The notes: generated from the letters alone by a model not told the origin. A stretch of DNA of 64,000 nt from Acidimicrobiales bacterium (GCA_029263215.1 JAJCXY010000093.1:2159-66158); one strand, 5' to 3'; shown: positions 6,604 to 64,000, counted from the first letter of the stretch. Made by a program: numbers and translations.

Positions 6604-6625
6604 CGGGTGATCCTCAAACAAGTAT

Positions 6626-6673
6626 TTGACAAAGAGCGGCTTGATCTTGTCTCAAGACCTCATCCATTGTCAA
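6626..6673. promoter_or_regulatory. candidate operator: inverted repeat TTGACAA (6626-6632) / TTGTCAA (6667-6673) with inner CTTGA...TCAAG (6640-6656)
   Basis: It lies in the 84-nt divergent intergenic region between the DUF4395-like gene and the ArsR-rhodanese gene. This is a symmetry observation only. Confidence 0.2.
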
Positions 6674-6687
6674 GCAGTTCCTTGAAT

Positions 6688-43831: not shown

Positions 43832-43919
43832 GGGGAACCTCCTGTCGATGGCTTCAACGCTAAGTCGGTGAGAGTGCGAAGGGAAGAGATTTGTTCGGCC
43901 GCCGGGCCGTAGCGATATC

Positions 43920-46900
43920 TCAGCGGCTCTCCGATGCCGGACTTGGTCTGCCGGTCGATAGTTGGCGGGCCGTCAGGCGGGCGTAGAGGCCACCTTCGCG
44001 CAGCAGCGATTCATGGTCACCGATCTGCACGACCCGACCCGCGTCCATGACGACGATCCTGTCGGCGTTGCGAACCGTGGACAGTCGGTGGGCGATGATG
44101 AGGGTGGTGCGGCCCCGCATCAACTCCTCGAGCGAGCGATGCACGGCTGCTTCGTTGAGGGCGTCGAGATGCGAGGTTGCTTCGTCGAGCACGAGGACGG
44201 GTGCGTCCTTCAGAAAGGCACGGGCGATGGCGACCCGCTGACGCTGACCGCCGGAGAGTCGCACCCCGCGCTCGCCGACGGTGGTCTCCAGCCCGTCGGG
44301 AATTGCCGAGACGAAGCCGCCCAGTGATGCCCGGTCGACAGCTTCGCTGAGCTCGTGTTCGGAGGCATCGGGCCGGGCCATCATCACGTTGTTGCGCAAG
44401 CTGTCGTTGAACAGGTATGTCTCTTGGCTGACCATGGCAACGTGTGCTCTGAGGTCGACCAGGTCGAGGTCACGGAGGTCCTCGCCGAACAGGGTGACCC
44501 GACCCGATGTCGGATCCCAGAAGCGCACTAGCAGGTGCGCCGCCGTGGTCTTGCCCGCGCCGGATGGCCCCACGATCGCAATGGTGGTGCCTGGGTGGGC
44601 GTTGAAGCTCACATCGGTGAGAACGGAGCGATCGGTGCCGGGGTAGGTGAACGAAACGTTCTCGAATGTGACCGCGGCGCGCCCCGAGATGGTGTCGACG
44701 GGCACGGGGGCATCGGGCGAGAGCACCGGCACCGGTTCGCGGTGAACGCTGTCGAGTCGGCGGGTTGCGCCGAGCGTGTCGGCGAGTTGCCGTCCGACAT
44801 GGGCGATTTCCGACATCGGCAGGAAGCAGGCGAGGGCAAGGAGGGTGAGCAGGGGCAGCGTCGTTGCCGCGAGGTCGCCGGAGGTGACCAGCGCGGAACC
44901 GGTGAAGACGACGGCCAGGCCGCCCAGCCCGGTTGCAACCTCGAGGAGAGCGGTCTGGCGCGACAGGTCGCGATAGAAGGGCATGCGGGCATCGAGGTGG
45001 GTTCTCACCCTTTGGATGAACGCGTCGGATCTTGACTGGGCCTGCTGGAAGGCGAGTACCTCGGGTAGCCCTTGAAGGGTGTCGACCACGTAGGCGTTGA
45101 GGTCGCCGAGGGCTTCGCGGTCTCTTGATCCGAGGGCGTCGAGGCGCTTTCGGACCAGGACAGGGCTTGCTGCCACGAGGGCGAGGAAGGGCAGCAAGGC
45201 CACTGCCATGGGCCAACCCAGGAGTCCGAGCACGATCAAGACGGTGGTGGGCACCACCACCGCAACGAACGCCGGCGCCACGGTATGGGCGAAGAAGTAT
45301 TCGACCATCTCCACGTCGTGGGTCGCCATGGCAACCAAATCCCCCGTGCGTCGACGTACGAGGTAGGCGGGAGCCAGTGCGTCGAGCTTTTCGTACAAGG
45401 CGATTCGCATCTCGGCGAGCATGCGGAAGGCCATGTCGTGCGCGATCCACGACTCCAGCCAATGCAGGATTCCGGCCAGAGGTGCCGTGACCGCGAGCGC
45501 CACGAGGAGACCGCCGAATGGCTCGCCGCGCCGAACCGCGGCCACAACCAGAGCGCTCAGCACTCCTACGCCGATCAGGGCGGCCACACGGGTCACGCCG
45601 AAAAGGAAGGTCGCGAACAGTTTGACACGCCACGGGCGCACTTCGGCAAAGAGCGATCGGATCGCCCCGCCCCATCCCAGAGACGTGGTTCGCACGATCT
45701 CGGCGTCGCCGGCCTGGCCGTCGCCCGACATCTCGTTGACCAGATCGGACCCGTCGTCGATGCCGTCGAGGTCGTCGAGGAAGGCGTCGGGGATCGACAC
45801 CTCGTCGCGCGCCAACTGCTCGGCCATCAGGCCGTGGTAGCGGCCGCCCAACTTCACCAGCGACTGGTGGTTGCCGGATTCGACAACTTCGCCGGTGTCG
45901 AGGACGAGGATGCGGTCGGCGCCGATCACACTCGATAGTCGGTGGGCGAAGATGAGTGTGGTGCGACCGGCCATGAGACGATCGAGCGCCTCTTGGATCA
46001 CGGCCTCGTTTTCGGCATCGACGCTGGAGAGCGCTTCGTCGAGTACCAGCACGGGTGCGTCTCGCAACAGGGCGCGGGCGATTGCGATTCGCTGTCGTTG
46101 GCCTCCGGACAATCGGATGCCGCGCTCGCCGATGACGGTGTCGTAGCCGTTGGGGAGATTCATCACGAAGGCATGCGCGTTGGCATCCACGGCTGCTTGG
46201 CGCACCGCGTCCAGGTCCGCGTCGGGCGCACCGAAACGGATGTTCTCGAGAACGGTGCCATGGAACAGGAACGTGTCTTGTGAGACGACCGCGATGGAGC
46301 CGTAGTGATCGTCGGCGGAGAGATCCCGCACGTCGTGGCCGCCCAGTGTGATCCGCCCCGCGCCGGGGTCGTGGAATCTGAGGAGCAGTTTCACCATCGT
46401 GCTCTTGCCTGCACCGCTCGGTCCGACGACGCCGACCCGTTCCCCGGGCGCAACACGCACGTCGAGACCGGCGAGGGTTGCTCTCGTTGCCCCCGGGTAG
46501 TGGAAGGTGACGTCCTCGAAGACGACAGTCGGTTCGAGCGGACCCGTCAGACGCGCAGGGCTGGAGGAGCGTTCGACGGCAGGCTCGCCGTCGAGGACGG
46601 CGAAAATGCCGTGGGCTGCGGACTGCCCCATCATCCCGTTGTGCAACAGGGCCCGGAGATCGCGTTGGGGGCGGAACACCTCGATGCCGGCCATCAAGAC
46701 GATGAGCAGGATCTCGATCTCCATGTCGCCAGAGCGGACGCGATACGCGCCTAGAGCGAGTGCGCCGGCCGCTCCGAGGGCAAGACCGGTGTCGGTGATG
46801 CCTCTCGTGAATGAGTTGGTGGCCAAGACCCACATGGTGCTTTTGAACACGTCGTGGGCCCTCTCCGCCAGAGTTGCTCTGCGGGCATCGCTTTGACCGA

Positions 46901-47603
46901 AGGCCTTGAGAGTTCCGAGGCCCTGGAGTGAGTCGAGGAATTCAGCCGCGAAGCTCGAGTAGGCCTGCTGGCGAAGGAGGCTGTTCGCGGCGTCCCAGCG
47001 GTGAAAGGCGGCCGGAGCCACCAGGGTGACGAGAGCGAACACGAGCAGCACGGCTGCGACCGGGAGGTCGAGCGGGGCGAGCAGGCCGAAGATCACGAAC
47101 GGGGTGATTGCCGCTACGAAGAGTTGGGGCAGGTACTCGCCGAACCACACTTCCAACTGTTCGACGCCTTCGACGAGCGAGATCAGCACCTCGCCGGTTC
47201 GGGCGTCGCCGAAGTGGGACGGCCCGAGGCGCATGACGTGGTCGTGCAATTGGGTGCGCAGGGATAGTTGCAAACGTGCCGCGGTGCGGTGCGCCAGCAT
47301 CTTTCGCCAGTGTTCCAAGCCGCCGCGGGCGACCATGGCTGCAGCCACCGCCAGTGTCGGCAGCAACAGGTCGCGTGCAGTCTCACCGCGAAAGACCTTG
47401 GCCAGCAGCCATCCCAGGAGTGCCAATCGGACAATCCCCATGACCGATGCGACAACCCCGATGGCGACCGCTTGGACCAGAGCGCGCCGCTCGGCCTTGG
47501 CCATGGCCCAGAGTCTCGTGTCGATGAACAAGAGACGTTTACTACCAGACGATTCGGGATCATGGTTCATACGGCCCAGTACGACGGTTACTTCTGCCAT
47601 CAC
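43920..47603 (-). CDS. fused ABC exporter (two permease plus ATPase halves in one polypeptide; CydD/CydC-like)
   Basis: There are two Walker A sites (GPSGAGKST, GPSGAGKTT) and two signature motifs (LSGGQRQR, twice). Each ATPase is preceded by a six-helix membrane domain. The CydDC-like assignment is only a resemblance. Confidence 0.85.
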   Translation of the reverse strand: MMAEVTVVLGRMNHDPESSGSKRLLFIDTRLWAMAKAERRALVQAVAIGVVASVMGIVRLALLGWLLAKVFRGETARDLLLPTLAVAAAMVARGGLEHWRKMLAHRTAARLQLSLRTQLHDHVMRLGPSHFGDARTGEVLISLVEGVEQLEVWFGEYLPQLFVAAITPFVIFGLLAPLDLPVAAVLLVFALVTLVAPAAFHRWDAANSLLRQQAYSSFAAEFLDSLQGLGTLKAFGQSDARRATLAERAHDVFKSTMWVLATNSFTRGITDTGLALGAAGALALGAYRVRSGDMEIEILLIVLMAGIEVFRPQRDLRALLHNGMMGQSAAHGIFAVLDGEPAVERSSSPARLTGPLEPTVVFEDVTFHYPGATRATLAGLDVRVAPGERVGVVGPSGAGKSTMVKLLLRFHDPGAGRITLGGHDVRDLSADDHYGSIAVVSQDTFLFHGTVLENIRFGAPDADLDAVRQAAVDANAHAFVMNLPNGYDTVIGERGIRLSGGQRQRIAIARALLRDAPVLVLDEALSSVDAENEAVIQEALDRLMAGRTTLIFAHRLSSVIGADRILVLDTGEVVESGNHQSLVKLGGRYHGLMAEQLARDEVSIPDAFLDDLDGIDDGSDLVNEMSGDGQAGDAEIVRTTSLGWGGAIRSLFAEVRPWRVKLFATFLFGVTRVAALIGVGVLSALVVAAVRRGEPFGGLLVALAVTAPLAGILHWLESWIAHDMAFRMLAEMRIALYEKLDALAPAYLVRRRTGDLVAMATHDVEMVEYFFAHTVAPAFVAVVVPTTVLIVLGLLGWPMAVALLPFLALVAASPVLVRKRLDALGSRDREALGDLNAYVVDTLQGLPEVLAFQQAQSRSDAFIQRVRTHLDARMPFYRDLSRQTALLEVATGLGGLAVVFTGSALVTSGDLAATTLPLLTLLALACFLPMSEIAHVGRQLADTLGATRRLDSVHREPVPVLSPDAPVPVDTISGRAAVTFENVSFTYPGTDRSVLTDVSFNAHPGTTIAIVGPSGAGKTTAAHLLVRFWDPTSGRVTLFGEDLRDLDLVDLRAHVAMVSQETYLFNDSLRNNVMMARPDASEHELSEAVDRASLGGFVSAIPDGLETTVGERGVRLSGGQRQRVAIARAFLKDAPVLVLDEATSHLDALNEAAVHRSLEELMRGRTTLIIAHRLSTVRNADRIVVMDAGRVVQIGDHESLLREGGLYARLTARQLSTGRPSPASESR

Positions 47604-47662
47604 CGCACCGACATCCGGCCCGATCTGTTCAATCGAGAGACAGCGAGCCCCGACACTGCATC

Positions 47663-49039
47663 ATGGCTACTGGCGTTGGGACGCGAACCGGTGAGGATCT
47701 CCTCGCCGCGCGGACCAGTCTCTCGCATGTCCTCAGGCATCTGTTCCGTGCCACCGCGGGGTTGGCGCTAGCCCTCGTGGCCGCCCGCCTGGTCGTCGAC
47801 CTCATCGGCCCTGACGCCACAGCGGGGCGATCACGCTTGTTGTGGGAGGTGCCGATCCAGGTGATCGCCGCCGGCATCGCTCTAACGATCACCTCAGCCA
47901 TTCCTATCGCCACCGATCTGCGGCGGGTTCAGGCAAAGGTGGCGCGAAACGAAAAGGAACTGGCCCGGCGGTCGGTGAGCCAACGGTTCCTGCACGACGT
48001 ACAGCACGCCTTTGAGATGGCGGAGGACGAAGACGAACTCTTCGAGATCGCCGCAGTGGCTCTCGGTCGGGTCGCCCACGATGAGGTCGGCGGCACCGAG
48101 ATCCTCGTCGCAGATTCCAGTGCGGCCCACGTATCGTCTCTGGTGGTGGCCGATGTCGGGTCCGCCCCGGGGTGCGGGGTGGCGACGCCCGGTTCGTGTC
48201 CAGCGGTGCGTCGAGGCCAGACCTTGCGTTTCGAGGATCCCTCCGGTTTGACGGCGTGCCCCCGTCTGCGAGAACGGGACCTACCTGGCGGCATGGGGGC
48301 TACTTGCGTACCCGTGACCGTGCTGGGGACACCGAGTGCTGTGATGCACGCCACCTACTCGTTCATCGAGAATGAGGTGGAGTACGAAAAGAAGGTCGAT
48401 TCGCTGGAAGGGGTCGCGGTGCAACTCGGCACCCGCCTAGGCATGCTGCGGGCGATGTCGCAGTCACAGTTGCAGGCCGACACCGATCCCCTCACCGGGT
48501 TGCTCAACCGCCGGGCCATGGAGAACCAGGTGCGCGAGCTGCGTGCCGGTGGGCAGGACTTCGCGGTGGCGATGCTCGATCTGGATCATTTCAAGCGACT
48601 CAACGACACCTACGGCCACGACACCGGTGACCGTGCCCTTCGCCTGTTCACCAGGGTGCTCACCCAAACCATGCGAGACAACGACATCGTGTGTCGCCAC
48701 GGCGGTGAGGAGTTTGTGGTGGTGCTTCCGGGGGCGACGGTTGCTTCGGCGGCTCCGGTGCTTCACCGGTTGCGGGCCAGCCTTGCCGATGCGGTCGCCG
48801 GGTCCCAAGTGCCATCCTTCACGGTGAGTATCGGCTTGTGTGACTCGTCATGGTCCGACGATCTGCAGCAGGTGTTGAGCTCGGCCGATCAGGCGTTGAT
48901 GGAAGCGAAGTCGCAAGGCCGAGACCGGATTGTCATCGACGACCCCATGTCGCTGCCGAGCACCGACTCGGACATGGACGTACTCGGTGAACTGGACGAC
49001 GTGTTCTTCGCCGCGAGCCGGTTGAGCCAGGAATCCTGA
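47663..49039 (+). CDS. membrane-associated diguanylate cyclase (GGDEF)
   Basis: DPLTGLLNRRAM...LDLDHFKRLNDTYGHDTGD...RHGGEEFVVVLPG is a GGDEF domain. N-terminal TM helices and a sensor-like middle domain precede it. Confidence 0.85.
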   Translation: MATGVGTRTGEDLLAARTSLSHVLRHLFRATAGLALALVAARLVVDLIGPDATAGRSRLLWEVPIQVIAAGIALTITSAIPIATDLRRVQAKVARNEKELARRSVSQRFLHDVQHAFEMAEDEDELFEIAAVALGRVAHDEVGGTEILVADSSAAHVSSLVVADVGSAPGCGVATPGSCPAVRRGQTLRFEDPSGLTACPRLRERDLPGGMGATCVPVTVLGTPSAVMHATYSFIENEVEYEKKVDSLEGVAVQLGTRLGMLRAMSQSQLQADTDPLTGLLNRRAMENQVRELRAGGQDFAVAMLDLDHFKRLNDTYGHDTGDRALRLFTRVLTQTMRDNDIVCRHGGEEFVVVLPGATVASAAPVLHRLRASLADAVAGSQVPSFTVSIGLCDSSWSDDLQQVLSSADQALMEAKSQGRDRIVIDDPMSLPSTDSDMDVLGELDDVFFAASRLSQES

Positions 49040-49054
49040 CTGCTCTTCGCTGCC

Positions 49055-50761: not shown

Positions 50762-51167
50762 GGCGTGACCGTAGCAAGCCTCGTCGGTTGGCCCACAGGG
50801 CGGATCACCCGGAGCGGCCTACTGTTCCTTGCGAGAGTTGCTCCTGTTCTGCACTCGACGGCTCCAAAGTGAAACTTGGCGCACGCGGCGTCGATGTCGT
50901 ACTCGATCTCGTGGCCGGACCGAAGTGGCCATCTCTTCGAGCTGCTGCGATCCGGCGGCTGCACCGTCCCGGACCCCGACGCCTTCGGGAATCTTGTGAA
51001 GCGCATCTAGGACGGGGAAGTCGAGCCAGTTGGCGTTTCAGACCAACGGTCATGCTGTCGGCTGCCTTGAGAGGTGGCTCCGTGCCGTGAACGGAGCGCA
51101 AAGCCCCCGCAGGAAGGGTGTGAGTGAGACCGCCTGCCAGTTCTTGGTTCAGCGACGATGGGTTTCG

Positions 51168-52463
51168 TCAGCTCGCGGGCGCACCGGCGGCTCGCCATTG
51201 GAAGGCGGCCATTTGGGCTCGGGTGACGGTGTTGTTGGGGGAGTAGGTGGTGCTTGATGTGCCTGTGGTGATTCCGGATTCGAGCATCCATGCGACGGCG
51301 TCGGAGTAGTACGAGTCGGCCGGTACGTCTACGAACGGGGTCCCCGAACCAGCCGGGCTCGTCGGCGCCGGGATGACCTGCTCACCCCGATACTGATCGC
51401 AGTTGGCCCCGCCGGCGAGGATGCACTGGATCTCGGAGTCGTAGTGGGGATCATCGACCAGAGGTGGGATGGCGCCGCTGTCGGGCATGGCCACCGGCTC
51501 ACCCCGCACGAACTCGGGGTCGCCGCCGGAGGGTCCCGCGGGCGCCAGGGTGAACCAACCGGCCGGAAGCTGTGGGGCTGTTGCGGTTCGGTGGGCTTCG
51601 ACCACGACGGCATCGATCCACTGCCGGTTGGTGCCGGTCACCCTGGCCGCGATCAATTGCCTGGGGTTGTCTGCGTCGATGTCATCGACGCTGCAGCTCG
51701 TCACACTATTCATCACACCGACGAGGCGGTACCCGCCTGCTTCGGCATCGAACCAGGCGACCGGTCCTCCCGAGTCGCCGTAGCAGGCCATGGCGGTCCA
51801 TTCGTCGAAGCAGAACTGGGTGGTCTGTGAGGTGCTGCTGGGGCACGAATCGGCGCGGACCATCCGGCCGTCGCGAAGCTGATCATCTGATGGCGCCTCG
51901 GCGTTCTCGAGGCCCCAACCGGCAATCCACACGATGTCGGAGACGTCTGGATTTCGTTCGGCTAGCGGATCGGCTGGCGCGATGACGCCCCGATCGAGCA
52001 TGACGACTGCTAGGTCTACGCCCCGCTGCGAGATCGGGTTCGTCGGCCTCCAGGTCGGGTGGAGAGCGACCCCTCGACCCGACCGGACCTGACCGTCCGG
52101 TTGCGGTGTGCCGAAGTTGCCGATGTTCTGAGTGACGGGACTGGTTTGGATCGTGACGGAGTCGAGCTCGATATTCTCGAGGACCTTGTCGTTGTCGGTG
52201 TCGATCCAGTCATCGACACAGTGCGCCGCAGTCAACACGACGTGCGCGTCGATGATCGACCCGGTGCACCTGGAGCTGACGTTCCCATAGGTCATCGACA
52301 GTTCGACGATCGACGGCCACGCGGTCTCCTGGGTGTTGCGGGTTACCACGGTGCCGCTGTTGGCGGCAGCAGTCGCCGGCAGCAAGCCAACGACCGAGGC
52401 GACGGAGAGGACGACTGCCAGGAGCCGGGAACCGAAGGAGCTGGGTACGAGGTTGATGTTCAT
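51168..52463 (-). CDS. secreted trypsin-like (S1) serine protease with a C-terminal SLH domain
   Basis: The likely start is MNINLVPSSFGSRLLAVVLSVASVVGLLPATAAA at 52463. The catalytic segments are LTAAHCV and GDSGGPV. The SLH-like C-terminus is FVDVPADSYYSDAVAWMLESGITTG...VTRAQMAAF. Confidence 0.8.
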   Translation of the reverse strand: MNINLVPSSFGSRLLAVVLSVASVVGLLPATAAANSGTVVTRNTQETAWPSIVELSMTYGNVSSRCTGSIIDAHVVLTAAHCVDDWIDTDNDKVLENIELDSVTIQTSPVTQNIGNFGTPQPDGQVRSGRGVALHPTWRPTNPISQRGVDLAVVMLDRGVIAPADPLAERNPDVSDIVWIAGWGLENAEAPSDDQLRDGRMVRADSCPSSTSQTTQFCFDEWTAMACYGDSGGPVAWFDAEAGGYRLVGVMNSVTSCSVDDIDADNPRQLIAARVTGTNRQWIDAVVVEAHRTATAPQLPAGWFTLAPAGPSGGDPEFVRGEPVAMPDSGAIPPLVDDPHYDSEIQCILAGGANCDQYRGEQVIPAPTSPAGSGTPFVDVPADSYYSDAVAWMLESGITTGTSSTTYSPNNTVTRAQMAAFQWRAAGAPAS

Positions 52464-53042
52464 GTTGCAACCGAACCACCTCGGCAACGCTGGTCCCATC
52501 GGGTGAACGTCGACGTTGCGTCGACCAACGTCGAATTCGGCAGTCCGCGGTGTCGAGCGGGCTCTGACCGAGACGATGAGGTCCGCTTGAGCGAGCCCAT
52601 GATCGAACGTCGCTGATTGGGCCTGATGAGACGGCCGCTGAGAGCGGGTCCTTCGCTGAAACACGCCGAGGGTGGTACTTGGAGTGCTCCCCGACCTGCA
52701 GGTGTGGAAGTGGTCCGTGAGGGTCCCGGGTCCCGGCCGAACGGTGGCCTTTCCCTGCGCAGAACCGCGACGGTTCAGGAGGTTGTTTGGACCCAGGTCT
52801 CTCTCTGTCGGCCCCGAGAGGGACAGGCGTCAGGTGGAGGCGACTGCATCGGCAGGGAGTCTGTGCCAATGCGTCAAGCGGGAAGTTGTCCGTGCTGTCC
52901 GTGCTCACGGTCTCGGCCAGCGAGCCCGGGCCTGCGGCCGCACCTCTCGCCGAAGACAGCTAGCCACCACAACCGGATGTGTCGACCGGGCCATCCGAAA
53001 CGGTGGCGCTGGGAACCGGCGACGTAGAGATCCAGTTCACTC

Positions 53043-53270
53043 TCACCCGCGACCCGAGCAGGTACACCGAACTGGTGATGACCCGCGAGCCCACGGGGCC
53101 CATCGTGGTGAGGACTCGGTGTTGAGCTCAGCCAGCACGGCGAGGGGGTCGGTGGTCGTGATGGACCAGTGGTGCTTGCTGGTTGCGAGCCCGATGCCCG
53201 TGTCGGGGTGGACGGCGTGGCCTTGTAGTGGTGACTGGAGCTGGGCAATGAGATCGTGGGTGTCGGGCAT
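53043..53270 (-). pseudogene. fragment homologous to codons about 14-55 of the polA-like gene
   Basis: The minus strand reads MPDTHDLIAQLQSPLQGHAVHPDTGIGLATSKHHWSITTTDPLAVLAELNTESSPRW, then unrelated sequence and a stop. Compare IAIHPGTGIGFASSDHHWSITTPDPLAVLAELNAESSPRW in 49055..50761. Confidence 0.55.
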
Positions 53271-53362
53271 GGCCCGACCGACCTCGTTGAGGCCTTTGAT
53301 AACTCGGGAGAATGGAGGTGTTGGACACGCCGTTCGGCACCTTCGAGTCCGACTAGTCGGTC

Positions 53363-54814: not shown

Positions 54815-55774
54815 TCACTGGCCCCGGCGGGCGTAGCTCGTGAGCCGGTCCATGACTGCGGTGCTCTCGTCGTCGAATACCCCGCCGTAGACGTTGAGCA
54901 CCAGCGTGGGGTTGGAGTGCCCGGCCCACTTGGCCGCAGCGCGCGGAGACGCCAGTGATCGGCTCCACATGGCGATACAGGTGTGGCGTAGGTCGTGGAT
55001 CCGGAGCCCTTCGAGGCCGGCAGCGATGGTTGCAGCTCGCCAGGTCCGCGATCGGAAGTTGCCCTCGGACAACGGCGATCCCCACGCCGACGTCCAGACG
55101 AGATCACGTGGCTCAAGGCCGCGCCCAGAGATATCGTCGCCGAGTTCCTGCATCACGAAGGGAGGGACCGGGACAGTTCGGCGGCCTGCCCTGGACTTGG
55201 GCGGCCCGAACGTCGGCGCGCCGTCAGCGCCGAGTGTTCGGGTTTCGACCACGTCGATGGTGCGTGCGGCGATGTCGACCCGTTCGACACGCAACGCCGC
55301 CAGCTCGCCGTGGCGGAGTCCGGCGTATGCACCGACGAGGACGAACGTGCGGTAGGGCTCGGCGATCGCTGAAGCGAGGCGGTCGACCTCCTCAGGGTCG
55401 AGGAAGCTCGGTTCCTTGTGTGGGATCTGCGGTAGCGCCAGACCCCGGGTGGGGTTCTGGGCGAGCAGTCCGGATCGCACGGCGATGTCCAACGACTGGG
55501 CGAGCAGTCCGGCCGCCTTCCTGACGGTTCGCGGCGCCAGGCCGGATCCGGCGAGTTCGGCCACGAACCGCTGGGCTGAGCGGAACCCGATCTGGTCGAT
55601 CGTTGTGTGGCCGAACACCGGATCGAGATGGCAGTTGTAGATCGAGTTGTCGCGTCGAAGGGTCGACGGCCGCACACCGACCCGCATCAGGGTGAACTCG
55701 GTCCACCATTCGCGAAAGGTTGGCACCGGTTCGCTCGGGGTGGTGAGCGGGTCCGGGCGCGCGTGGCCGTCCAT
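54815..55774 (-). CDS. tyrosine-type site-specific recombinase / integrase
   Basis: The N-terminal SAM-like core-binding domain contains FREWW...FVAEL. The catalytic segments are GLRHGEL, HDLRHTCIAMW and GHSNPTLVLNVYGGV. Confidence 0.9.
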   Translation of the reverse strand: MDGHARPDPLTTPSEPVPTFREWWTEFTLMRVGVRPSTLRRDNSIYNCHLDPVFGHTTIDQIGFRSAQRFVAELAGSGLAPRTVRKAAGLLAQSLDIAVRSGLLAQNPTRGLALPQIPHKEPSFLDPEEVDRLASAIAEPYRTFVLVGAYAGLRHGELAALRVERVDIAARTIDVVETRTLGADGAPTFGPPKSRAGRRTVPVPPFVMQELGDDISGRGLEPRDLVWTSAWGSPLSEGNFRSRTWRAATIAAGLEGLRIHDLRHTCIAMWSRSLASPRAAAKWAGHSNPTLVLNVYGGVFDDESTAVMDRLTSYARRGQ

Positions 55775-55801
55775 CGAGGATCCTTCGAACCTGGCCGCCG
55801 A

Positions 55802-56260
55802 TCAGCCGATTGCGCCGGACGCGATCAACGACGCGATCAACGACGCGATCGTGCCGATGATGAATACGGTGAGCGTGACTGTCACCGTGGCTGCGCCGAG
55901 CGTGACGGCGCGACCCAACTGGCCCATCTGAACACCGAGGTCGTCCATCTGCGTGCCGATGCTGTCCATCCGAGCGCTGACGTTGTCCATCCGAGCGCCA
56001 AGCGATGCTCCTTGCGCGGCCACGGTGCGTGTGAGCTCCTGGAGATCGCTCGAGGTCTGGTCGAGCCGAAGCGTCAACGTGTCGATCCGACCGTCGACCC
56101 TGTTGAGCTGGCGGTCGAGCTGCGTGAAATCTTCCTTTGTGGCGAGTTCGGTCCACGGGATGGGCGGCATGGACTCCATAATGGCATCTGCTGCCTGTTC
56201 ATCCATCAGTTCGATGAGGTACTGACGGATACGGAGGCGAGCACTTTCGTCTGCGGGCAT
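55802..56260 (-). CDS. tail-anchored coiled-coil protein, paralog P2
   Basis: It begins MPADESARLRIRQYLIELMDEQAADAIMESMPPIPWTELATKEDF. The heptad array is ARMDNVS ARMDSIG TQMDDLG VQMGQLG. The C-terminal TM helix is TVFIIGTIASLIASLIASGAIG. The ATG at 56260 lies inside the listed ORF. Confidence 0.7.
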   Translation of the reverse strand: MPADESARLRIRQYLIELMDEQAADAIMESMPPIPWTELATKEDFTQLDRQLNRVDGRIDTLTLRLDQTSSDLQELTRTVAAQGASLGARMDNVSARMDSIGTQMDDLGVQMGQLGRAVTLGAATVTVTLTVFIIGTIASLIASLIASGAIG

Positions 56261-56411: not shown

Positions 56412-59400
56412 CTACGCGCAGCCGAGCACCTGGAAGAGGCGGCCGCCGGGGCCGGGGACAAGGAGCGGGCCCCATTCGACCGCGCCGGTCGGATAGGTGA
56501 TCTGGGCGTGGGCGGTGTAGAGCGGGATGCCGTTTGTGACGTCGGGGCCGGGGGCATCGGCGACCATCGTGACCGATTCGGCCTGGAGCAGGCTCGCTTC
56601 AAGTTGGGCAATGCACGCTTCGGCGTTGGGCCCGGCGACGAGTGTGGGGATCACGGTGGCGATGACGCCGTCGCGGTCGCCGGCTGTGAGCGCGGCGTCG
56701 AGGCGAGAGAAGAAGTCGTTGAGCAGGATCTTCGTGAGGTGTTCGCCGGGGTCGCCGTCGATCGGGGTCCGCGGTTGGGTGCCCGACACGTCGGGCGGGA
56801 TGCCGGCATCGGCGTCGAAATCGACGGCCTCGCTGGAGATCGGGAGCAGAGGATCGTCGATTGAGGATCCGCTGATGTCGCCGCCGGAGGTCGCCGGGTT
56901 CGGGATCTCGCCGGGGTCGCCATCGTTGTGGAAGGCGGTGGCGCGGTAGCTGAGCGGACCGTCGGGCAGTTCTGACCGGGGGATGAACCAGACGAGCGTG
57001 TCGGCGAATTCGATCACTGCTGCCGCTGAGTGGCGAGGGTGATCAGGGGCGCCGTCGATGAACCCATCGGCTCGCATCTGTCGGTTGCCGTCGGCGTCGA
57101 TCTCGAGGCGGTACCAGAACTCGGTGCCGGTGAAGAAGTCGGCATCGAATTCGGGCGGTGCGGCGTAGTCGGTGTCGTCCTCTGCGTCGTCGAGGGCGAG
57201 GCCGTAGGTGAAGCCGCGAGCGCCTTCGCCGATCGGCCCGGCGAGTTCGACGCCGATGATGACGAATTCGCCGTCCGGGGCGGGCCCCGCACCGATCGGG
57301 CAGGTGACTCGGTATTCGCCCGTGTCGGCGCCACATGGGAACGCCGATGCGTTCAGCAGGCGGTTGACTCGGGTGCTCGCCAGACGGATGATCGCCGACC
57401 ACACCTCGTCAATCTGCGAAGCGGGCAACGGCTTGCCGTCGACGCCGACGATGGAGAACGTGGTGTCGTCGTCTTCGTCGTGCTCGACAACGAGGAAGGC
57501 GGCGGCGCCGTCGGGTCCCCCGAAGCGAGCAACGATGGCCTGTTGCTCGGTTAGGTCTGGTGCGGCATCGACCTCGCCCTCGTCCGACTCGGTGTCGTCC
57601 GCGCCCTCGTTGGCGGTGCCGTCAACGACGGGGTCGGTCTCGGGATCGCCGCCCGAGAGTGTGACTACGCCGATCACGATTGCGATCACCGCCACGACCA
57701 CGCCGGCAACGATGATCGGGAGCGAGTGCTTCGTCTCTCCGGGCCTGTCATCTGCGTCAGCGTCGTCGGCCGGGTAGTCGTCGCCGAGCCCGCCCATGTC
57801 AACCTCGGGCGGTTCGTACTCGCCATCGAGTTGGTCGAACTTCTTGTCGTCTTGGGCCTGGGCGTACGCGGCTTTCTGCTCGGGGGTCCAGTCTTCGCCG
57901 TCGTCGTCGGACGAGAAGCCGGTGCTGTCGTCCCAGACCGGATCAGGGTCGGTGGTGCGCCCGAGTCGGTGGGCAGCGCGGAGTTCACGGTCGCCTTTCG
58001 TGACCGAGAGGAGGGCCTGGTAGACCGCGTCGAGGACACTTGTGCGGTAGGTCGAGCGATCGTCGGTGTCGTGGTTGCCGGCGCTGATGATTCTTGGCAG
58101 GTGGCGTCGGCTGTCCCACACGCGAAGGGAGGCGCTCCACCCGCTGTAGTCGCGCACCGGACTCTCGGGGTCGAGTTCGTCGTCTCGTTGCTCCCACTCG
58201 TAGTAGCTGAGGTCGAGGATGAACCAGCCGGCGATGATCTGGTCGCGGCGCATCCACAGTGGCTGAGTGAGGTCGATCGGGCGGGCATGCTGGTCGACCG
58301 GGAAACGGAGGACGGTGCGGTGCTTCTCGAGGCTCTTCGGGTCGGGGTCTCGCCGACAGCTTTCGGGAAGGAACATGAGAAAGCCATCGACGTCGAAGCC
58401 GTACGCCCGCAGCGCGTCATGCGCCGCGAAACGGGCCCGCATGTGGTCGCGGTGCATGGCCTGATTCATGACGGCGTCTCTTGGCCAGCCGCGGGTGGGT
58501 CCGAGCCATCCGACCTGACGAGCCGCCTCTCGCCGATCGACGGGCACCTCGAGGCCGGAGCGCCAGGCCTTGATCTCGTCCTCGGTTGCCGGCTCGACTT
58601 CCTCATCGGGTGATGCGTCTTGTGCGGCAGGGCCGCCGGGCTGGACGATCTTGACGCTGCCGGGTCCGCTGGGCATGGCCACGATGGCCGGGTCGTCAGG
58701 CTCGTGTTGCGGCTCGGTTGCGGCGCCGGTCTCGACGTCGGGGCAGTAGTGCGTTTCGCAGTGAGCGAGCAGTTCGAGCAGATCAGCGATCTCTTGCTCG
58801 AACCGTTCGCTGTTTTGGAGATGACGATCGACGTCGGCGGACAGGGAAGCGATGTCGTACGCGGGGGTGTGACGATCGTCGACAAGTCGCTGGAGACGGG
58901 CGGCGTAGCCGACCTCGCTGCGGAGCTTCGTTCGCACGAAGTAGATCTCGTCGCACAACCCCTGGCAGGCCGGGCAGTTGCTCTTCGGGCGGAGCGAATC
59001 TGCGAGTGCGTAGTCCGTGGCTCCGGTGGCGTTGTACGGCTGGTCGCCCTGACGGTGGTCGTCGGTTGGCGGATCACAGAGGAACGTCGAGCACGCTTCG
59101 AGCATTCGCCGGGCCCTGGCCACGGCAGCTTCGGCGGCCTCGAGCTCTTCGGGGTCACGGAACTTGCCGGCCAGGAACGCGTCGTCGAGTGCAGCGAAGC
59201 GGCGCTGGGCTACTCGCAGGGCGTCGTGGTACGGCAGGCACGGCTCGCAAACATCGTCGCTCGTGCTGAAGGCAGGGACGCCGATCGGTTCCACCTCGGT
59301 CTCGACCCCGGATTCGGGCAAGAGCGCTTCGCCCTCAGCATCGTCCAGGTCGGCGTCGGGGTAGACCCCGTCGGGGTTCGGAACCCCATCGGTGAAGTCG

Positions 59401-59801
59401 CCGAGACCTTGAATCGCCTCGCTGACGTCCATGCCGCACTCTTCGATTCGGCACTCGATGAGCCTCTTGACGTACTGCGAGACAGAGACGCGAGTCGAGA
59501 TGATGAGCTTTGCGATCTTGGCCCGCGCCGCGCTGATCTCGGCGCTTCGATGACCGGGATACTCCCCTTCGAGAAACGCCAGGCGGAGGTCGTCCTGAAC
59601 GAATACGTCGATGTGGGCCCGGAGGAGGGTGATGGCTCGAGCCCACATCGCACACGGCTCGCAGTCGGCCTCGACCAGGTTGGCTTCCCAGTGCGAGCGG
59701 TAGATACCGCCCTCGGCGTAGGAGGTCCCCATCTGCCATGTGCGCGGGCTCTTGTCGCTCAGCCACTCCTCATCAGCAAATGGGTCGTAGTCGTTGCTCA
59801 C
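56412..59801 (-). CDS. 1129-aa orphan single-pass membrane protein; N-terminal about 690 aa with three CxxC...Cx4C modules; C-terminal about 410-aa ectodomain
   Basis: The long ORF has coding-like composition. One TM helix lies at about residues 693-716 (LPIIVAGVVVAVIAIVIGVVTL). The Cys pairs are C47/C50-C117/C122, C185/C188-C237/C242 and C276/C279-C348/C353. I recognise no known domain. Confidence 0.75.
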   Translation of the reverse strand: MSNDYDPFADEEWLSDKSPRTWQMGTSYAEGGIYRSHWEANLVEADCEPCAMWARAITLLRAHIDVFVQDDLRLAFLEGEYPGHRSAEISAARAKIAKLIISTRVSVSQYVKRLIECRIEECGMDVSEAIQGLGDFTDGVPNPDGVYPDADLDDAEGEALLPESGVETEVEPIGVPAFSTSDDVCEPCLPYHDALRVAQRRFAALDDAFLAGKFRDPEELEAAEAAVARARRMLEACSTFLCDPPTDDHRQGDQPYNATGATDYALADSLRPKSNCPACQGLCDEIYFVRTKLRSEVGYAARLQRLVDDRHTPAYDIASLSADVDRHLQNSERFEQEIADLLELLAHCETHYCPDVETGAATEPQHEPDDPAIVAMPSGPGSVKIVQPGGPAAQDASPDEEVEPATEDEIKAWRSGLEVPVDRREAARQVGWLGPTRGWPRDAVMNQAMHRDHMRARFAAHDALRAYGFDVDGFLMFLPESCRRDPDPKSLEKHRTVLRFPVDQHARPIDLTQPLWMRRDQIIAGWFILDLSYYEWEQRDDELDPESPVRDYSGWSASLRVWDSRRHLPRIISAGNHDTDDRSTYRTSVLDAVYQALLSVTKGDRELRAAHRLGRTTDPDPVWDDSTGFSSDDDGEDWTPEQKAAYAQAQDDKKFDQLDGEYEPPEVDMGGLGDDYPADDADADDRPGETKHSLPIIVAGVVVAVIAIVIGVVTLSGGDPETDPVVDGTANEGADDTESDEGEVDAAPDLTEQQAIVARFGGPDGAAAFLVVEHDEDDDTTFSIVGVDGKPLPASQIDEVWSAIIRLASTRVNRLLNASAFPCGADTGEYRVTCPIGAGPAPDGEFVIIGVELAGPIGEGARGFTYGLALDDAEDDTDYAAPPEFDADFFTGTEFWYRLEIDADGNRQMRADGFIDGAPDHPRHSAAAVIEFADTLVWFIPRSELPDGPLSYRATAFHNDGDPGEIPNPATSGGDISGSSIDDPLLPISSEAVDFDADAGIPPDVSGTQPRTPIDGDPGEHLTKILLNDFFSRLDAALTAGDRDGVIATVIPTLVAGPNAEACIAQLEASLLQAESVTMVADAPGPDVTNGIPLYTAHAQITYPTGAVEWGPLLVPGPGGRLFQVLGCA

Positions 59802-60253
59802 GGTTCACCTCGGCCGTCGATTCCAGAAAGGACTACCACCTGCTTCGTCGACGCGACAGCACGACGGTGAAGTGCTGTCGGTGGCGATCCGAGAGGTCCC
59901 GTCGTGCCAGAACGTCCATCCGACATCACCGAGTGGTCGGATGCAGATTGGGAGCAGTGGTTCGACGCTGAGGTGGTCGACTCGAACGATTGGTTGTGGG
60001 GTGTTGCGACCGACCCCGACCTGACCGGGTGTCCAGGGTTCCGGCGTTGGCCGACATGAGGGCGGCGCTGTCTCGCAACTACTCCGAGACTCCGGGGATG
60101 GGCCAGTTCTTCCCGGAGCATTCGTCCGATGGTGCGGGCGCGTTCTGGCTGCGTAGCTCGTGCCGCAGATCGTGGACTCGGAAACCTTCGAGGCCGGGTT
60201 TGGTCGGGGCGCAAGTGTGCGTCCATCTCGGCTCTTCAGACGTGACCTGCCGA

Positions 60254-60718
60254 TCAGCCGAAGGCGCCGGCGACGATCAGCGATGCGATCGTGCCGATCA
60301 TGAACACGACGACCGTGATCGCCATAGTGGCCGCACCGATCGTGACGGCACGACCCAGCTGGCCCATCTGGACACCGAGATCGTCCATACGGACCCCGAT
60401 GCCGTCCATGCGAACGCTCACACCATCTAGGCGGTCACTCACGCCGTCGATACGAGCGTCGAGCCGTTCGCCAAGTCGGTCGATGCGGGAGCCGAGCGAG
60501 GCGCCCTGCTCGGCAACGGTGCGGGTCAGCTGTTGGATGTCGCTCAAGTTTTGATCCGCTCTGAGCGTCAACGTGTCGAGCCGGCCGTCGAGACGTTCGA
60601 CATCAGCCTTGGTGGCGAGGTCGGCCCAAACGATCGGCGGCATGGACTCCATCATGACGTCTGCTGCTTATTCGTCCATCAGCCCGGTCAGGTACTGACA
60701 GATTCGGAGGCGGGTGGC
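60254..60718 (-). pseudogene. tail-anchored coiled-coil paralog P3 with an in-frame TAA and a degenerate 5' end
   Basis: The frame reads ..RLRICQYLTGLMDE*AADVMMESMPPIVWADLATKADVERLDGR... The TAA is at 60668-60670, where P2 has Gln (CAG). No start codon is present at the position of MPADES. A shorter product from MMESMPP (60655) remains possible. Confidence 0.55.
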
Positions 60719-60757: not shown

Positions 60758-61216
60758 TCAGCCGACGGTGGTGACCATCACCGCAACGACGCCGACGAAC
60801 AGCGTCATCATGGCGAACACGATCATGCGCGTCGTTTCGATGTAGCGAACCGACAGGCGGCCCTCGAGCAGGGCCAGCTCACCGGCGTGGCGATGACCCT
60901 GTGCATCGATCAGGCCTTCGAGTCCTTCGCCCTGTGCTCGGATCGCCGAATCGAGCCGTTCGCCCTGTGCTCGGATCGCCGAGCCGACCCGCTCTTCGGT
61001 ATCGGCCAGAGCTCCTTCGAACCGATCGCCAAGATCGACGAGAGCCGATTCGAGGCGCTCGCTCCTTGCATCGAGGCGCGCCACGTCGTCCTTGGTGGCG
61101 AGTTGATCCCAACGCATGGGTGGCATGGACTCCATCATGGCATCAGCCAAGTCGGAATCAAGTAGTTCAGTCAGACGGCGGTGCAGACGAAGACGAATGG
61201 ATTCGTCGGAAGACAT
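60758..61216 (-). CDS. tail-anchored coiled-coil protein, paralog P4
   Basis: It begins MSSDESIRLRLHRRLTELLDSDLADAMMESMPPMRWDQLATKDDVARLD. The C-terminal TM helix is MIVFAMMTLFVGVVAVMVTTVG. It contains a 33-nt perfect tandem duplication. Confidence 0.7.
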   Translation of the reverse strand: MSSDESIRLRLHRRLTELLDSDLADAMMESMPPMRWDQLATKDDVARLDARSERLESALVDLGDRFEGALADTEERVGSAIRAQGERLDSAIRAQGEGLEGLIDAQGHRHAGELALLEGRLSVRYIETTRMIVFAMMTLFVGVVAVMVTTVG

Positions 61217-61367
61217 GGGGTTCCCTCGGTGTGTGGAGTACGACGAGGGGAAGTAGTCGCGAACATACCCAAGAGGTGTGACAGCCAAGCGGTGAACGGT
61301 GGAGTGCGGCGCTTCTCTTCATGAGATCGGTTCTTCGGCGGAAAGCCAGTCGACGGATCATCAAGAA

Positions 61368-61428: not shown

Positions 61429-62589
61429 ATGGATCGCCTCACTAACCCTTACCGTCCGGGCGCAGGCACGCCTCCGCCCGCGCTGATCGGTCGTGATGAA
61501 CTCATCGACGACTTCGGAGTTGCGCTTCGTCGCGCGCTCGCGGGGCGCCCTGGGAAGAGCTACATGGCGATCGGGCTTCGCGGCGTAGGCAAGACCGTCC
61601 TCTTGAATCGCTTTGTCGATATTGCCAGCGATGAAGGAGTCAAGGTCGCCTTCATCGAGGCACCCCAGACCGGCAACTTCACACAGCAGCTCGCCGTGCG
61701 ACTGCGAAGGACGCTGCTTGAGATGAGCCGCGGGCCGGTTCGGGCAGTCGTCAACAAGGCGCTCGGAGTGCTTCGCTCGTTCACGCTCCAACTACCCGAT
61801 GGAACCAACATTCAGCTCGGGGTCGAGGCGCTCGCCGGACAGGCAGACTCGGGCATCCTTTCCGAGGACCTCACAGATGTCCTCGTCGCAGTCGGTGAGG
61901 CCGCGGCGGAGCTTGGCACCGGACTGCTCTTCGCCATCGATGAGGTCCAGTACCTCAGCGGCGACGAGTTCGGCGCAGTAATCACCGCAATTCATCGCAC
62001 CACCCAGCTTGATCTCCCCGTTGTGCTCGTGGGAGCCGGCCTTCCTCAACTACCCGGCATCGCTGGCGAGGCCAAGTCGTATGCGGAACGACTGTTTGAG
62101 TTCCCGCGCATCGACTCGCTGACCGCCGAACAAGCCGCAGACGCTGTTCGGCTGCCGGCTGAGGAGCTGGGCGTGACATTCGATGACGATGCACTCGAAG
62201 AAATCGTCCAAGCCTCAAAGGGATACCCCTACTTCCTCCAGGAATGGGGCTACCACGTCTGGAACGCGTCACCCGACAGTCCGATCACTCGCGACGATGT
62301 GCTGTCCGTTGCGGGAGAGGTCATCGCAACACTCGACGAGAACTTCTTCCTCGTCAGAGTCGACCGCCTCACGCCGAAGGAGAAGGACTACCTCCGCGCC
62401 ATGGCAGAACTAGGCCCGGGACCGCATCGATCAGGCGACATTGCGACCGAGCTCGGCGTCAAGGTCGAGTCCGTCGGACCTCGACGATCGGGCCTAATCG
62501 CCAAGGGAATGATCTACAGCCCCGCCCACGGCGATACCGCATTCACGGTGCCTCTGTTCGACGAGTTTCTCCGACGCACTCTGGCCTGA
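61429..62589 (+). CDS. P-loop ATPase of the archaeal-ATPase/ORC-like (STAND-like) type with a C-terminal winged helix
   Basis: NPYRPGAGTPPPALIGRDELIDDF...MAIGLRGVGKTVLLNRF carries the Walker A. LLFAIDEVQYL is the Walker B. The C-terminal wHTH-like segment is KDYLRAMAELGPGPHRSGDIATELGVKVESVGPRRSGLIAKGMIY. Confidence 0.75.
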   Translation: MDRLTNPYRPGAGTPPPALIGRDELIDDFGVALRRALAGRPGKSYMAIGLRGVGKTVLLNRFVDIASDEGVKVAFIEAPQTGNFTQQLAVRLRRTLLEMSRGPVRAVVNKALGVLRSFTLQLPDGTNIQLGVEALAGQADSGILSEDLTDVLVAVGEAAAELGTGLLFAIDEVQYLSGDEFGAVITAIHRTTQLDLPVVLVGAGLPQLPGIAGEAKSYAERLFEFPRIDSLTAEQAADAVRLPAEELGVTFDDDALEEIVQASKGYPYFLQEWGYHVWNASPDSPITRDDVLSVAGEVIATLDENFFLVRVDRLTPKEKDYLRAMAELGPGPHRSGDIATELGVKVESVGPRRSGLIAKGMIYSPAHGDTAFTVPLFDEFLRRTLA

Positions 62590-62905: not shown

Positions 62906-63487
62906 CTAGCCGACGACGCGCAGCCAGTCCTCGATTCGCAATTCCATTCTCGCTACGTCGACATCGCTCACGCTTCCAGTGTGGGCGAGCGCACGGCGTG
63001 TCACGTTTAGCTCGTTGAAGTAATAAGTGACCCAATCAGCATCGCCTAGCAGGACTTCAAACAGCTCCCACTGGTCCGCAATGATCTCTGCGTACTGCGG
63101 GAAGTCGACGTAGTTGATTGGGCTCTCCCCCCGCGGGCTGTGCCATCGCGCCTTGAGGTCGGCTGCTTTGCGCTTCGCGACCTGCTTCTGGATGGCTGGA
63201 GGGATGCCGTCCTGCCACCACTTCTCAGGACCGAAGTGGTCGCGGAGGGTTCCCTCCACGAGTTCCCGTACCGAGTTCTCGAAGAAGTACAAGAGTTCAT
63301 ACGCCTGGCCCATTCGTCGGGCCCTGACCTGATCGTCGGGACTGAAGCTAGAAGCGAAGTGCGAATCGCGACGTGAGGTCGTGGCTGGCGAGGCCGGCAA
63401 CAACCCCTCTTCATGCAGCTCCTCCAGCCGAGAATTCGCGAGCACCGATCTGAACATGAAAGCTTGGAGTTCGCGATTCACGGCCAT
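62906..63487 (-). CDS. Swt1-like HEPN domain protein
   Basis: The pattern YFFENSVRELVEGTLRDHFGPEKWWQDGIPPAIQ...INYVDFPQYAEII...FNELNVTRRALAHTG includes the Rx4H motif RRALAH, as in Swt1-type HEPN domains. The start ATG overlaps the upstream stop (ATGA at 63485-63489). Confidence 0.7.
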   Translation of the reverse strand: MAVNRELQAFMFRSVLANSRLEELHEEGLLPASPATTSRRDSHFASSFSPDDQVRARRMGQAYELLYFFENSVRELVEGTLRDHFGPEKWWQDGIPPAIQKQVAKRKAADLKARWHSPRGESPINYVDFPQYAEIIADQWELFEVLLGDADWVTYYFNELNVTRRALAHTGSVSDVDVARMELRIEDWLRVVG

Positions 63488-64000
63488 CAGAGAAGGGTGT
63501 CCTTGAGGCTCTGGAAGATGGCGTTGTAGACGCCGATGTCAGTTGTCGCTGGTAGGTGGACGTGGACGTCGTGCTTGAGACTCAAAACCGCGCCATCCAG
63601 CTGAGCAATCGGCGGCGCGATGCGAGCGCCTTGTGGCTGCGGGTCGGCCTCCTCTCGAGGAGGAACCTCAGGCTCCTCTTCTGTTGGCTGCGCCATCACA
63701 ATTGCGCTGAAGTCAGCAACCTCGCTCAGGACCTTGAAGGTGGCCGCCATCTTTTGTGTAACGGCGTCCCCTTTGCCGGTGATCCGAGCGAACGCGCCCT
63801 TCAACTCCGTGCTCGACTGCTCGTACGCCTGCTGATCGATTGCGAATAGATCCTCGTACGCGTCCCGCATCGCCTCGGCCATCACCGCTGGCGAGGCCGC
63901 TGGGTCGCGAAACCGCCGATAGCGATCTGTTGGCTCGCCTGAGTCGCTCAGGAAGCCAAGTGCCTTCAGAACGCCGAGTGTCGGCCGGTCACCCGAACTG
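63487..64000 (-). CDS. DUF5343-like protein (5' end beyond the right edge)
   Basis: The frame stays open to the window edge: ..GDRPTLGVLKALGFLSDSGEPTDRYRRFRDPAASPAVMAEAMRDAYEDLF... The LKxLGF..dsG.PT.rY..fR block matches my recollection of DUF5343. The listed ORF 63487..63885 merely starts at an internal GTG. Confidence 0.5.
   Translation of the reverse strand, partial: SSGDRPTLGVLKALGFLSDSGEPTDRYRRFRDPAASPAVMAEAMRDAYEDLFAIDQQAYEQSSTELKGAFARITGKGDAVTQKMAATFKVLSEVADFSAIVMAQPTEEEPEVPPREEADPQPQGARIAPPIAQLDGAVLSLKHDVHVHLPATTDIGVYNAIFQSLKDTLL

Follow-up and report, generated by a model that had tools for sequence, protein, structure and literature searches.

A membrane protein of Acidimicrobiales with predicted cysteine-closed helical hairpins and the ectodomain of an unannotated Acidimicrobiia family

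The small Tim (Cx3C) and CHCH/Cox17 (Cx9C) proteins are small eukaryotic proteins of the intermembrane space in which the cysteine pairs lie inside the helices and are oxidized to disulfides. In the reduced form, such twin CxnC hairpins can bind Zn, and they switch between Zn-bound and disulfide states. The Rad50 zinc hook is located at a coiled-coil apex and is intermolecular (2 + 2 Cys), and DksA carries a CxxC-x17-CxxC arrangement in a globular lobe. At the level of gene clusters, MtrB-LpqB-MtrA and CseC-CseA-CseB represent actinobacterial combinations of a sensor, an accessory lipoprotein and a regulator. Here we describe a gene for an 1129-aa membrane protein (positions 56412-59801, minus strand) in a 64,000-nucleotide stretch of DNA from an Acidimicrobiales bacterium (GCA_029263215.1, JAJCXY010000093.1:2159-66158), which is referred to as the window. 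The protein varies known themes, namely structural four-cysteine (Cys4) sites on helical hairpins and sensor-lipoprotein-regulator clusters, and it is not demonstrably a new kind of system.

The features of the gene and its product are listed below, with positions in the window; helix limits and predicted local distance difference test scores (pLDDT) are from AlphaFold2 models.

56412-59801, minus strand: complete coding sequence of a bitopic membrane protein, 1129 aa plus stop codon, GTG start, predicted N-in/C-out
59436-59663, minus strand: Cys module A (aa 47-122), CEPC, helix 48-80, loop, helix 86-122, ending CRIEEC; pLDDT 84-89
59076-59249, minus strand: Cys module B (aa 185-242), CEPC, helix 186-210, loop, helix 217-241, ending CSTFLC; pLDDT 74-91
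58743-58976, minus strand: Cys module C (aa 276-353), CPACQGLC, helix 277-308, loop, helix 314-351, ending CETHYC; pLDDT 82-90
57999-58451, minus strand: Trp/Arg-rich middle alpha/beta domain, cytoplasmic (aa 451-601), helix, five beta-strands, helix; pLDDT 56-82
57771-57923, minus strand: acidic juxtamembrane motif (aa 627-677), DWTPEQKAAYAQAQDDKKFDQLDGEYEPPEVD
57654-57722, minus strand: single transmembrane helix (aa 694-716), the one hydrophobic helix in the protein
56820-57413, minus strand: extracytoplasmic beta-sandwich subdomain (aa 797-994), with invariant C823/C834 and an acidic DDxxDD loop
56415-56750, minus strand: extracytoplasmic C-terminal subdomain, predicted NTF2-like (alpha+beta cone) (aa 1018-1129), with invariant C1063/C1128

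The open reading frame (ORF) at 56412-59801 is a real coding gene. Its GC contents at the first, second and third codon positions (0.71/0.47/0.82) were like those of other real genes in the window, which has a GC content of 65%. The GTG start is preceded by GAGGTG, and identical copies of the protein are encoded on three metagenome contigs. The first-pass annotation, generated from the sequence of the window alone, had proposed three CxxC...Cx4C units in this ORF; they mapped to nt 58743-59663, and the cysteines were found exactly where they had been placed. It had also proposed a cytoplasmic Cys array followed by the middle domain, an acidic linker, one transmembrane helix and an ectodomain of ~410 aa, and this layout was confirmed, the C-terminal domain indeed comprising ~410 aa. 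The more positive flank was on the N-terminal side of the transmembrane helix in 15 of 17 homologs, following the positive-inside rule, and the short homologs consisted of a signal anchor and the ectodomain and nothing else. Judged from these patterns, the gene product is an N-in/C-out single-pass membrane protein. We consider the overall structural description of the protein to be likely correct.

The window protein had no significant match in Pfam, NCBIfam, PADLOC or PHROGs, and Pfam and NCBIfam revealed nothing consistent in 70 homologs. Searches of PDB sequences with the protein, the ectodomain profile and the module profile returned chance-level matches only. In a word-indexed homolog search, the full protein retrieved only itself, the ectodomain profile retrieved five proteins, and the module profile gave zero matches. 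An exhaustive HMMER search over 1.84 billion representative proteins returned 278 proteins at E<=1e-3, including 24 at E<=1e-30. All best stretches among the 150 listed matches lay in aa ~645-1128, nearly all of them in the ectodomain. Among these listed matches, aa ~800-990 (the beta-sandwich) was common to all relatives and aa ~990-1128 to the closer ones only, and a match extending through the cytoplasmic region was later demonstrated for P0003 alone. Genome scans recovered family loci in two Acidimicrobiia metagenome-assembled genomes (MAGs), and later in two more Acidimicrobiia together with one weak match in Acidobacteriota. Thus the protein, which had been called an orphan, is not one, since 278 representative proteins share its ectodomain. 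The accompanying statement that it fits no family holds as far as Pfam, NCBIfam, PDB and Foldseek are concerned, none of which gave a significant match, and fails in that an unannotated family of Acidimicrobiia exists.

This ectodomain family was defined from P0002-P0022 and the proteins of loci L003 and L004. Its hallmarks are FPCG...C, DDDGD, PPF.DFF..TE.WY and a C-terminal Cys pair, all located after a single transmembrane helix. The window protein scored 496 bits against the family profile, shared 34-50% identity with 18 members and had all four invariant cysteines. The cytoplasmic regions of the family ranged from ~20 aa to >1100 aa and were unrelated in content. In distant relatives, the beta-sandwich co-occurred with extracellular adhesion-type domains (FG-GAP, CHRD). 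Sequence comparison thus places the window protein in a family without annotation, the close members of which all come from Acidimicrobiia, and it indicates that the conserved, defining part is the ectodomain and that the cytoplasmic part is a mosaic of portable modules.

The AlphaFold2 model of the ectodomain, based on a 19-member alignment, had a pLDDT of 90.2 and a predicted template modelling score of 0.88, and it displayed a beta-sandwich followed by a helical/sheet cone. Foldseek of this model found nothing at E<=1e-3 in the PDB and zero matches at E<=1e-3 among viral structures. Short of this threshold, the C-terminal lobe repeatedly retrieved ketosteroid isomerase and designed NTF2 folds (probability 0.97-1.0, TMt 0.41-0.53) at weak E-values of 9e-3 to 1e-1, and its order of secondary structures was compatible with an NTF2-like cone, in which three helices pack on a curved sheet. 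A search with the ectodomain profile weakly matched SigJ of M. tuberculosis in its SnoaL-like part. The C-terminal ~110 aa, modelled as an alpha+beta cone, may belong to the NTF2-like/SnoaL/ketosteroid-isomerase superfamily; however, the E-values were only about 1e-2 to 1e-1, there were zero matches to the Pfam NTF2 and SnoaL families, and the window domain is extracytoplasmic, carries an invariant Cys pair and is fused to a beta-sandwich. The beta-sandwich itself showed only vague Foldseek resemblances to carbohydrate-binding module, cohesin and Ig-like folds, without a confident structural relative. Four ectodomain cysteines (C823, C834, C1063, and C1128) were invariant in the alignment of 19 sequences. 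They would form two disulfides, and two invariant Cys pairs suit an exported domain.

The N-terminal cysteines of the window protein are found at positions 47/50 and 117/122, 185/188 and 237/242, and 276/279 (plus 283) and 348/353. Their arrangement was compared with 200,000 composition-preserving shuffles of aa 1-690. Only three shuffles reached at least three CxxC and at least three Cx4C motifs, and none contained even two ordered CxxC...Cx4C units, whereas three were observed. The pattern is far beyond chance and is real and non-random. It is also conserved. The proteins P0003 and P0155, which represent one ortholog lineage, are homologous to the window protein along the whole cytoplasmic region, middle domain included, and they keep 12 of the 12 motif cysteines at 29% overall identity, with the extra C283 alone lost; the first-pass annotation had named the conservation of all 12 cysteines as a check on the pattern. 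In the L003 protein, 12 of the 13 N-terminal cysteines of the window protein aligned to Cys, and the single unmatched one reflects a Cx3C instead of a Cx4C in its module A.

The three units belong to distinct types, A, B, and C, and other proteins contain orthologs of each type. Orthologs of module A were found in P0003 and the L003 protein; those of module B (signature vCExC...LCxxxLCxP) in P0003, P0006, P0009, P0020, and the L003 protein; and those of module C (signature CxxCQxI...LLxxCExxxC) in P0003, P0006, P0012, P0020, and the L003 protein. The only similarity detectable between types was a faint one of A to C. The copy number in relatives varied from zero to three, at differing positions: P0006 and P0020 had two modules, P0009 and P0012 one, and many relatives none. 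In the L003 protein (1586 aa), all three modules were located right before the transmembrane helix, behind an unrelated 790-aa region. Because each type has its own orthologs, the Cys array is an assembly of old, portable modules and not a recent triplication. The module had originally been described as triplicated, and of this description the three units with a shared Cys pattern remain.

A cytoplasmic AlphaFold2 model (aa 1-690) was built from an alignment of eight sequences. It was confident within each Cys module (pLDDT 74-91), where it predicted two long antiparallel helices joined by a short loop, that is, an alpha-hairpin. The CxxC was placed at the start of helix 1 (N-cap) and the Cx3-4C at the C-terminal end of helix 2, and the helix limits coincided with the Cys motifs. 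Independently of the model, 13 of 15 modules had their helix-breaking segment at 0.44-0.55 of the distance from Cys to Cys, with spans that ranged from 54 to 140 aa. An antiparallel hairpin that is closed at its open end would require such a break, so the CxxC and Cx3-4C motifs are predicted always to meet.

In the proposed arrangement, each hairpin would have its four cysteines gathered at the open end around one structural Zn(II), which would staple the hairpin as a rigid rod. We rate it as somewhat probable that every module holds a single tetra-thiolate site, most likely with structural Zn. Metal binding is favored over stable disulfides because the modules are cytoplasmic, and the first motif often resembles a zinc knuckle, with Pro at position 2 or 3 of the CxxC (CEPC, CPAC, CRPC, CPEC). 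Zinc-finger and zinc-ribbon families of Pfam and NCBIfam gave zero matches in the protein even at E<=1, and none in the 70 homologs. A literature search for a precedent of a CxxC/Cx4C helical hairpin returned nothing relevant.

Like the twin CxnC hairpins, each module is predicted to be a helix-loop-helix in which one Cys pair per helix is brought together as a lock. However, the window protein has a CxxC and a Cx3-4C at the extreme open end of helices of 25-65 residues, in one to three tandem copies in a bacterial cytoplasmic region, and it showed no sequence similarity or Pfam match to those proteins. With spacings of 2 and 3-4 at helix termini instead of an equal n (3 or 9), it does not belong to the CHCH or small Tim proteins, and the likeness is an analogy only. 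The Rad50 hook and the C4 finger of DksA/TraR, which follows a coiled-coil hairpin, share with the modules the combination of CxxC motifs and long antiparallel coiled-coil helices whose ends are fixed by a metal. The window motifs differ in lying within one chain and at the open end, again without a Pfam or PDB sequence match.

Between the modules and the membrane, stretches homologous to the middle domain were detected in P0003, P0016, and P0005. Foldseek of the cytoplasmic model against the PDB gave no fold match for this domain and nothing at E<=1e-3. At locus L029 (6277-8004 and 8001-10541), the middle domain forms a separate 544-aa gene upstream of the family member P0020, with its stop overlapping the P0020 start. 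Such a domain fission or fusion argues that the middle domain and the family member function together. Five sequences contain the acidic motif, DWTPEQ..Y..QDDKKF; in P0009 and P0005 it is N-terminal, and in the L003 protein it is internal. It was considered as a universal cytoplasmic element, and this was rejected since it is present in these five sequences only.

Elsewhere, family members adjoin a regulator of ~960-1006 aa with AAA_22, BTAD and TPR domains (STAND-SARP type), and usually also a lipoprotein of ~235-250 aa. The regulator and/or the lipoprotein were found next to family members in L003, L004, L005/L006, L028, L030, L033, L034, and the P0156 contig, and the neighborhood was only partial in L005, L033, and L034. 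The conserved trio occupies 3631-7629 in L003, 4776-8610 in L004, 2909-5800 plus 9380-10084 in L028, and 4420-7311 plus 10890-11594 in L030, all from Acidimicrobiia. The lipoprotein of the trio (~235 aa) contains Cys and has no Pfam match.

The trio is comparable to MtrB-LpqB-MtrA and CseC-CseA-CseB in that a membrane protein with an ectodomain is encoded beside a lipoprotein and a transcription regulator. In contrast, the family has no histidine kinase, Ser/Thr kinase or anti-sigma domain; its regulator is a STAND ATPase of ~1000 aa with BTAD and TPR instead of a response regulator; and the window copy lacks both partners. The window does encode, at 13886-17701 on the minus strand, a 1271-aa fusion of an OmpR-type winged helix-turn-helix, BTAD, an nSTAND1 NTPase and a PnrA-like (Bmp) substrate-binding domain. 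The product is a SARP/STAND regulator of unusual build, with a sensor of the periplasmic-binding-protein type, and it is only distantly similar to the regulators adjoining the family. An AAA_16 gene of the window (61429-62589) was considered as a truncated family regulator and rejected, as it has no similarity to them.

We propose that the protein may work as a trans-envelope adaptor or sensor. Jointly with the partner lipoprotein of the canonical loci, the ectodomain would bind a ligand that is external or part of the envelope, and the stapled hairpins and the alpha/beta domain would serve as a cytoplasmic docking platform. In the canonical loci, the gene would be regulated by, or communicate with, the adjacent STAND-BTAD-TPR regulator, and the window copy would have left the canonical cluster. 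Taken as a whole, a bitopic envelope protein with Zn-stapled hairpins that acts as an adaptor or sensor is the best explanation, and we consider its chances to be evenly balanced; the adaptor or sensor function by itself can be put forward only tentatively.

Several observations weigh against this proposal. The mean pLDDT of the cytoplasmic model was just 63. C283 (giving CxxCxxxC) is conserved in some relatives and permits other stoichiometries. Degenerate modules with one Cys per end were found in P0009 (aa ~456-585) and P0002 (aa ~416-492), and these cannot form a Cys4 site. With respect to the four-Cys Zn- or Fe-binding units of the first-pass annotation, conserved cysteines at both ends of the predicted hairpins make a four-Cys metal site the simplest reading of the model. 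In addition, P0153, with a cytoplasmic tail of ~20 aa, retains the same regulator neighbor, as does the L004 homolog, which has no Cys modules. The link to the regulator is thus independent of the modules, and therefore the neighbor may control the family gene rather than receive its signal. The window copy, for its part, has no adjacent regulator or lipoprotein. The protein may have a role in signal transduction, as had been suggested, but the short-tailed homolog weakens this reading.

Two other explanations of the cytoplasmic region were considered. The first is that the hairpin cysteines form a thiol redox switch or an Fe-S site, in which oxidation or loss of the metal or cluster would open or cross-link the hairpins and so report the cytoplasmic redox or metal status across the membrane, like zinc-binding anti-sigma (ZAS) factors, Hsp33 and WhiB-like (Wbl) proteins. 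A disulfide staple accounts for the degenerate modules more readily than a Cys4 metal site does, and further extra cysteines besides C283 are present within the type C modules of P0006 and the L003 protein. The geometry is akin to that of the small Tim and CHCH hairpins, and Actinobacteria use several Cys-based redox sensors. However, the zf-HC2, Wbl and Fe-S families gave no sequence match, and the Cys spacing is unlike both the ZAS and the Wbl patterns. ZAS anti-sigma factors have Hx3Cx2C (zf-HC2) in an N-terminal anti-sigma domain that precedes a transmembrane helix, whereas the window protein had no PF13490 match and its CxxC and Cx4C lie 44-70 aa apart, without His; WhiB-like proteins are small and soluble with Cx(n)CxxCx5C, and no match to Pfam Whib was obtained. 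Three serial sites would be unusual for a sensor, and homologs without any Cys module keep the ectodomain and the neighbors. We regard this explanation as unlikely, though with a real chance of being right.

The other, to which we assign a similarly small probability, is that the protein serves the envelope purely as a structural or regulated component. The ectodomain alone would be functional, for example by holding a wall polymer or lipid in the NTF2 pocket, the cytoplasmic region would be an inert spacer or anchor, and the STAND-BTAD neighbor would simply control transcription. It would account for cytoplasmic regions that differ so widely in length and content while the ectodomain and the neighbors are conserved, and the FG-GAP and CHRD domains beside the beta-sandwich in distant relatives are in line with it. 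Against it, the conservation of the 12 cysteines and the middle domain at 29% identity and the re-use of the modules indicate selection on the cytoplasmic part, and precise Cys motifs are not expected of an inert spacer.

A more far-reaching version of the proposed adaptor or sensor combines two claims: that the Cys4-closed alpha-hairpin is an undescribed portable module dependent on metal or redox state, and that membrane protein, lipoprotein and STAND-BTAD regulator constitute a new kinase-independent, three-component envelope signalling system in Acidimicrobiia, with the hairpins gating contact with the regulator. Both together seem improbable to us.

The gene is located in a variable region of the window, which contains the following features.

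54815-55774, minus strand: intact tyrosine recombinase (integrase); synteny with the closest genomes stops just outside it
55802-56260, minus strand: ccB, a tail-anchored coiled-coil gene directly downstream of the 1129-aa gene, paralog of ccA
60160-60226, minus strand: relic of a second integrase gene, with codons 1-8 (MDAHLRPD) retained and fused directly to the box II region GLEGFRVHDLRH
60254-60655, minus strand: ccA, a tail-anchored coiled-coil gene upstream of the 1129-aa gene, 58% aa identity to ccB

The closest genomes showed 86-91% identity in the adjacent amidase gene, and synteny was lost exactly at the region of the 1129-aa gene. In another metagenome (locus L036, ENA ERZ23497871 scaffold_179, 2175-2446), a relic of ~270 nt from a close relative of this gene lies beside a HipA/HipB toxin-antitoxin pair; in it, aa 633-675 are fused to aa 875-922 (78-84% nt identity), after which the frame is lost, and this shows decay of this gene lineage in relatives. 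Owing to the loss of synteny and this relic, the window copy is regarded as an accessory, displaced copy, alone in an integrase-flanked variable region. Scans for tRNA genes and with Rfam found no feature marking an island boundary.

A diverged direct repeat of ~490 nt (55750-56239 and 60202-60712, also 61057-61195; 66-80% nt identity) carries ccB and ccA. The start codon region of an integrase follows each coiled-coil gene, and the 1129-aa gene lies between the two repeat copies. A third, weaker coiled-coil paralog is present at 60758-61288. Family libraries gave no name to the coiled-coil proteins, with generic coiled-coil and tape-measure-like matches only. A 142-aa ORF (59798-60226) that overlaps the start of the 1129-aa gene was rejected as a gene; it consists of the deleted integrase relic followed by unrelated sequence. 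On the plus strand, 59830-60250 appears to be a frameshifted remnant of another small gene, without a Pfam match. A pair of genes of the PADLOC candidate system PDC-M34 was found at 62906-63885 on the minus strand (A, E 6e-36; B, E 1e-71, with a Swt1-like HEPN domain). It lies ~3 kb from the 1129-aa gene and adjoins the AAA_16 ATPase gene mentioned above, which is on the plus strand.

Judged by nearby housekeeping genes, the window belongs to marine-type Acidimicrobiales. The genome closest to the window, L011 (CAXMSE010000027.1), shared 80-91% identity with it over 13 kb. Compared with L011, whose flanking genes were 88-91% identical in nt, the window contains extra segments at 43868-49054 and 50812-53359. 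Encoded in them are a fused ABC transporter (43920-47603) and a trypsin-like protease that bears an SLH domain (51168-52664), and the stretch from 44 to 64 kb is thus mosaic as a whole. The deposition of L011 as an 'uncultured Gammaproteobacteria' MAG probably reflects an error of binning or labelling, given that the other relatives all belong to Acidimicrobiia.

Such surroundings could suggest a defence or abortive-infection effector on a mobile island, with an external domain that senses phage and a cytoplasmic array that triggers the response, as the first-pass annotation had considered; the neighboring integrase and integrase relic, the PDC-M34 (HEPN) pair nearby, the break in synteny and the decayed relic beside HipBA would all agree with it, but this is very unlikely, since PADLOC matches in the region only the PDC-M34 pair and PHROGs nothing in the window protein, no viral structural match or recognizable effector domain was found, and the homologs, including P0003 with its full architecture, occur in ordinary chromosomal contexts beside the STAND-BTAD regulator, the lipoprotein and metabolic genes and not in defence islands. 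The correction of the orphan and defence labels matters for the mining of islands for new defence genes.

Acidimicrobiia abound in the communities of marine, freshwater and soil habitats; most of them are uncultured, and their envelope biology is poorly understood. The present work defines a recurrent extracytoplasmic domain absent from every family library, as well as a portable helical-hairpin module closed by cysteines, which is a candidate for Zn binding. If the hairpin staple is true, it would add a simple, designable motif to the structural metal sites. For the Acidimicrobiia, the conserved trio of regulator, lipoprotein and membrane protein provides a handle on a possibly new signalling or envelope pathway.

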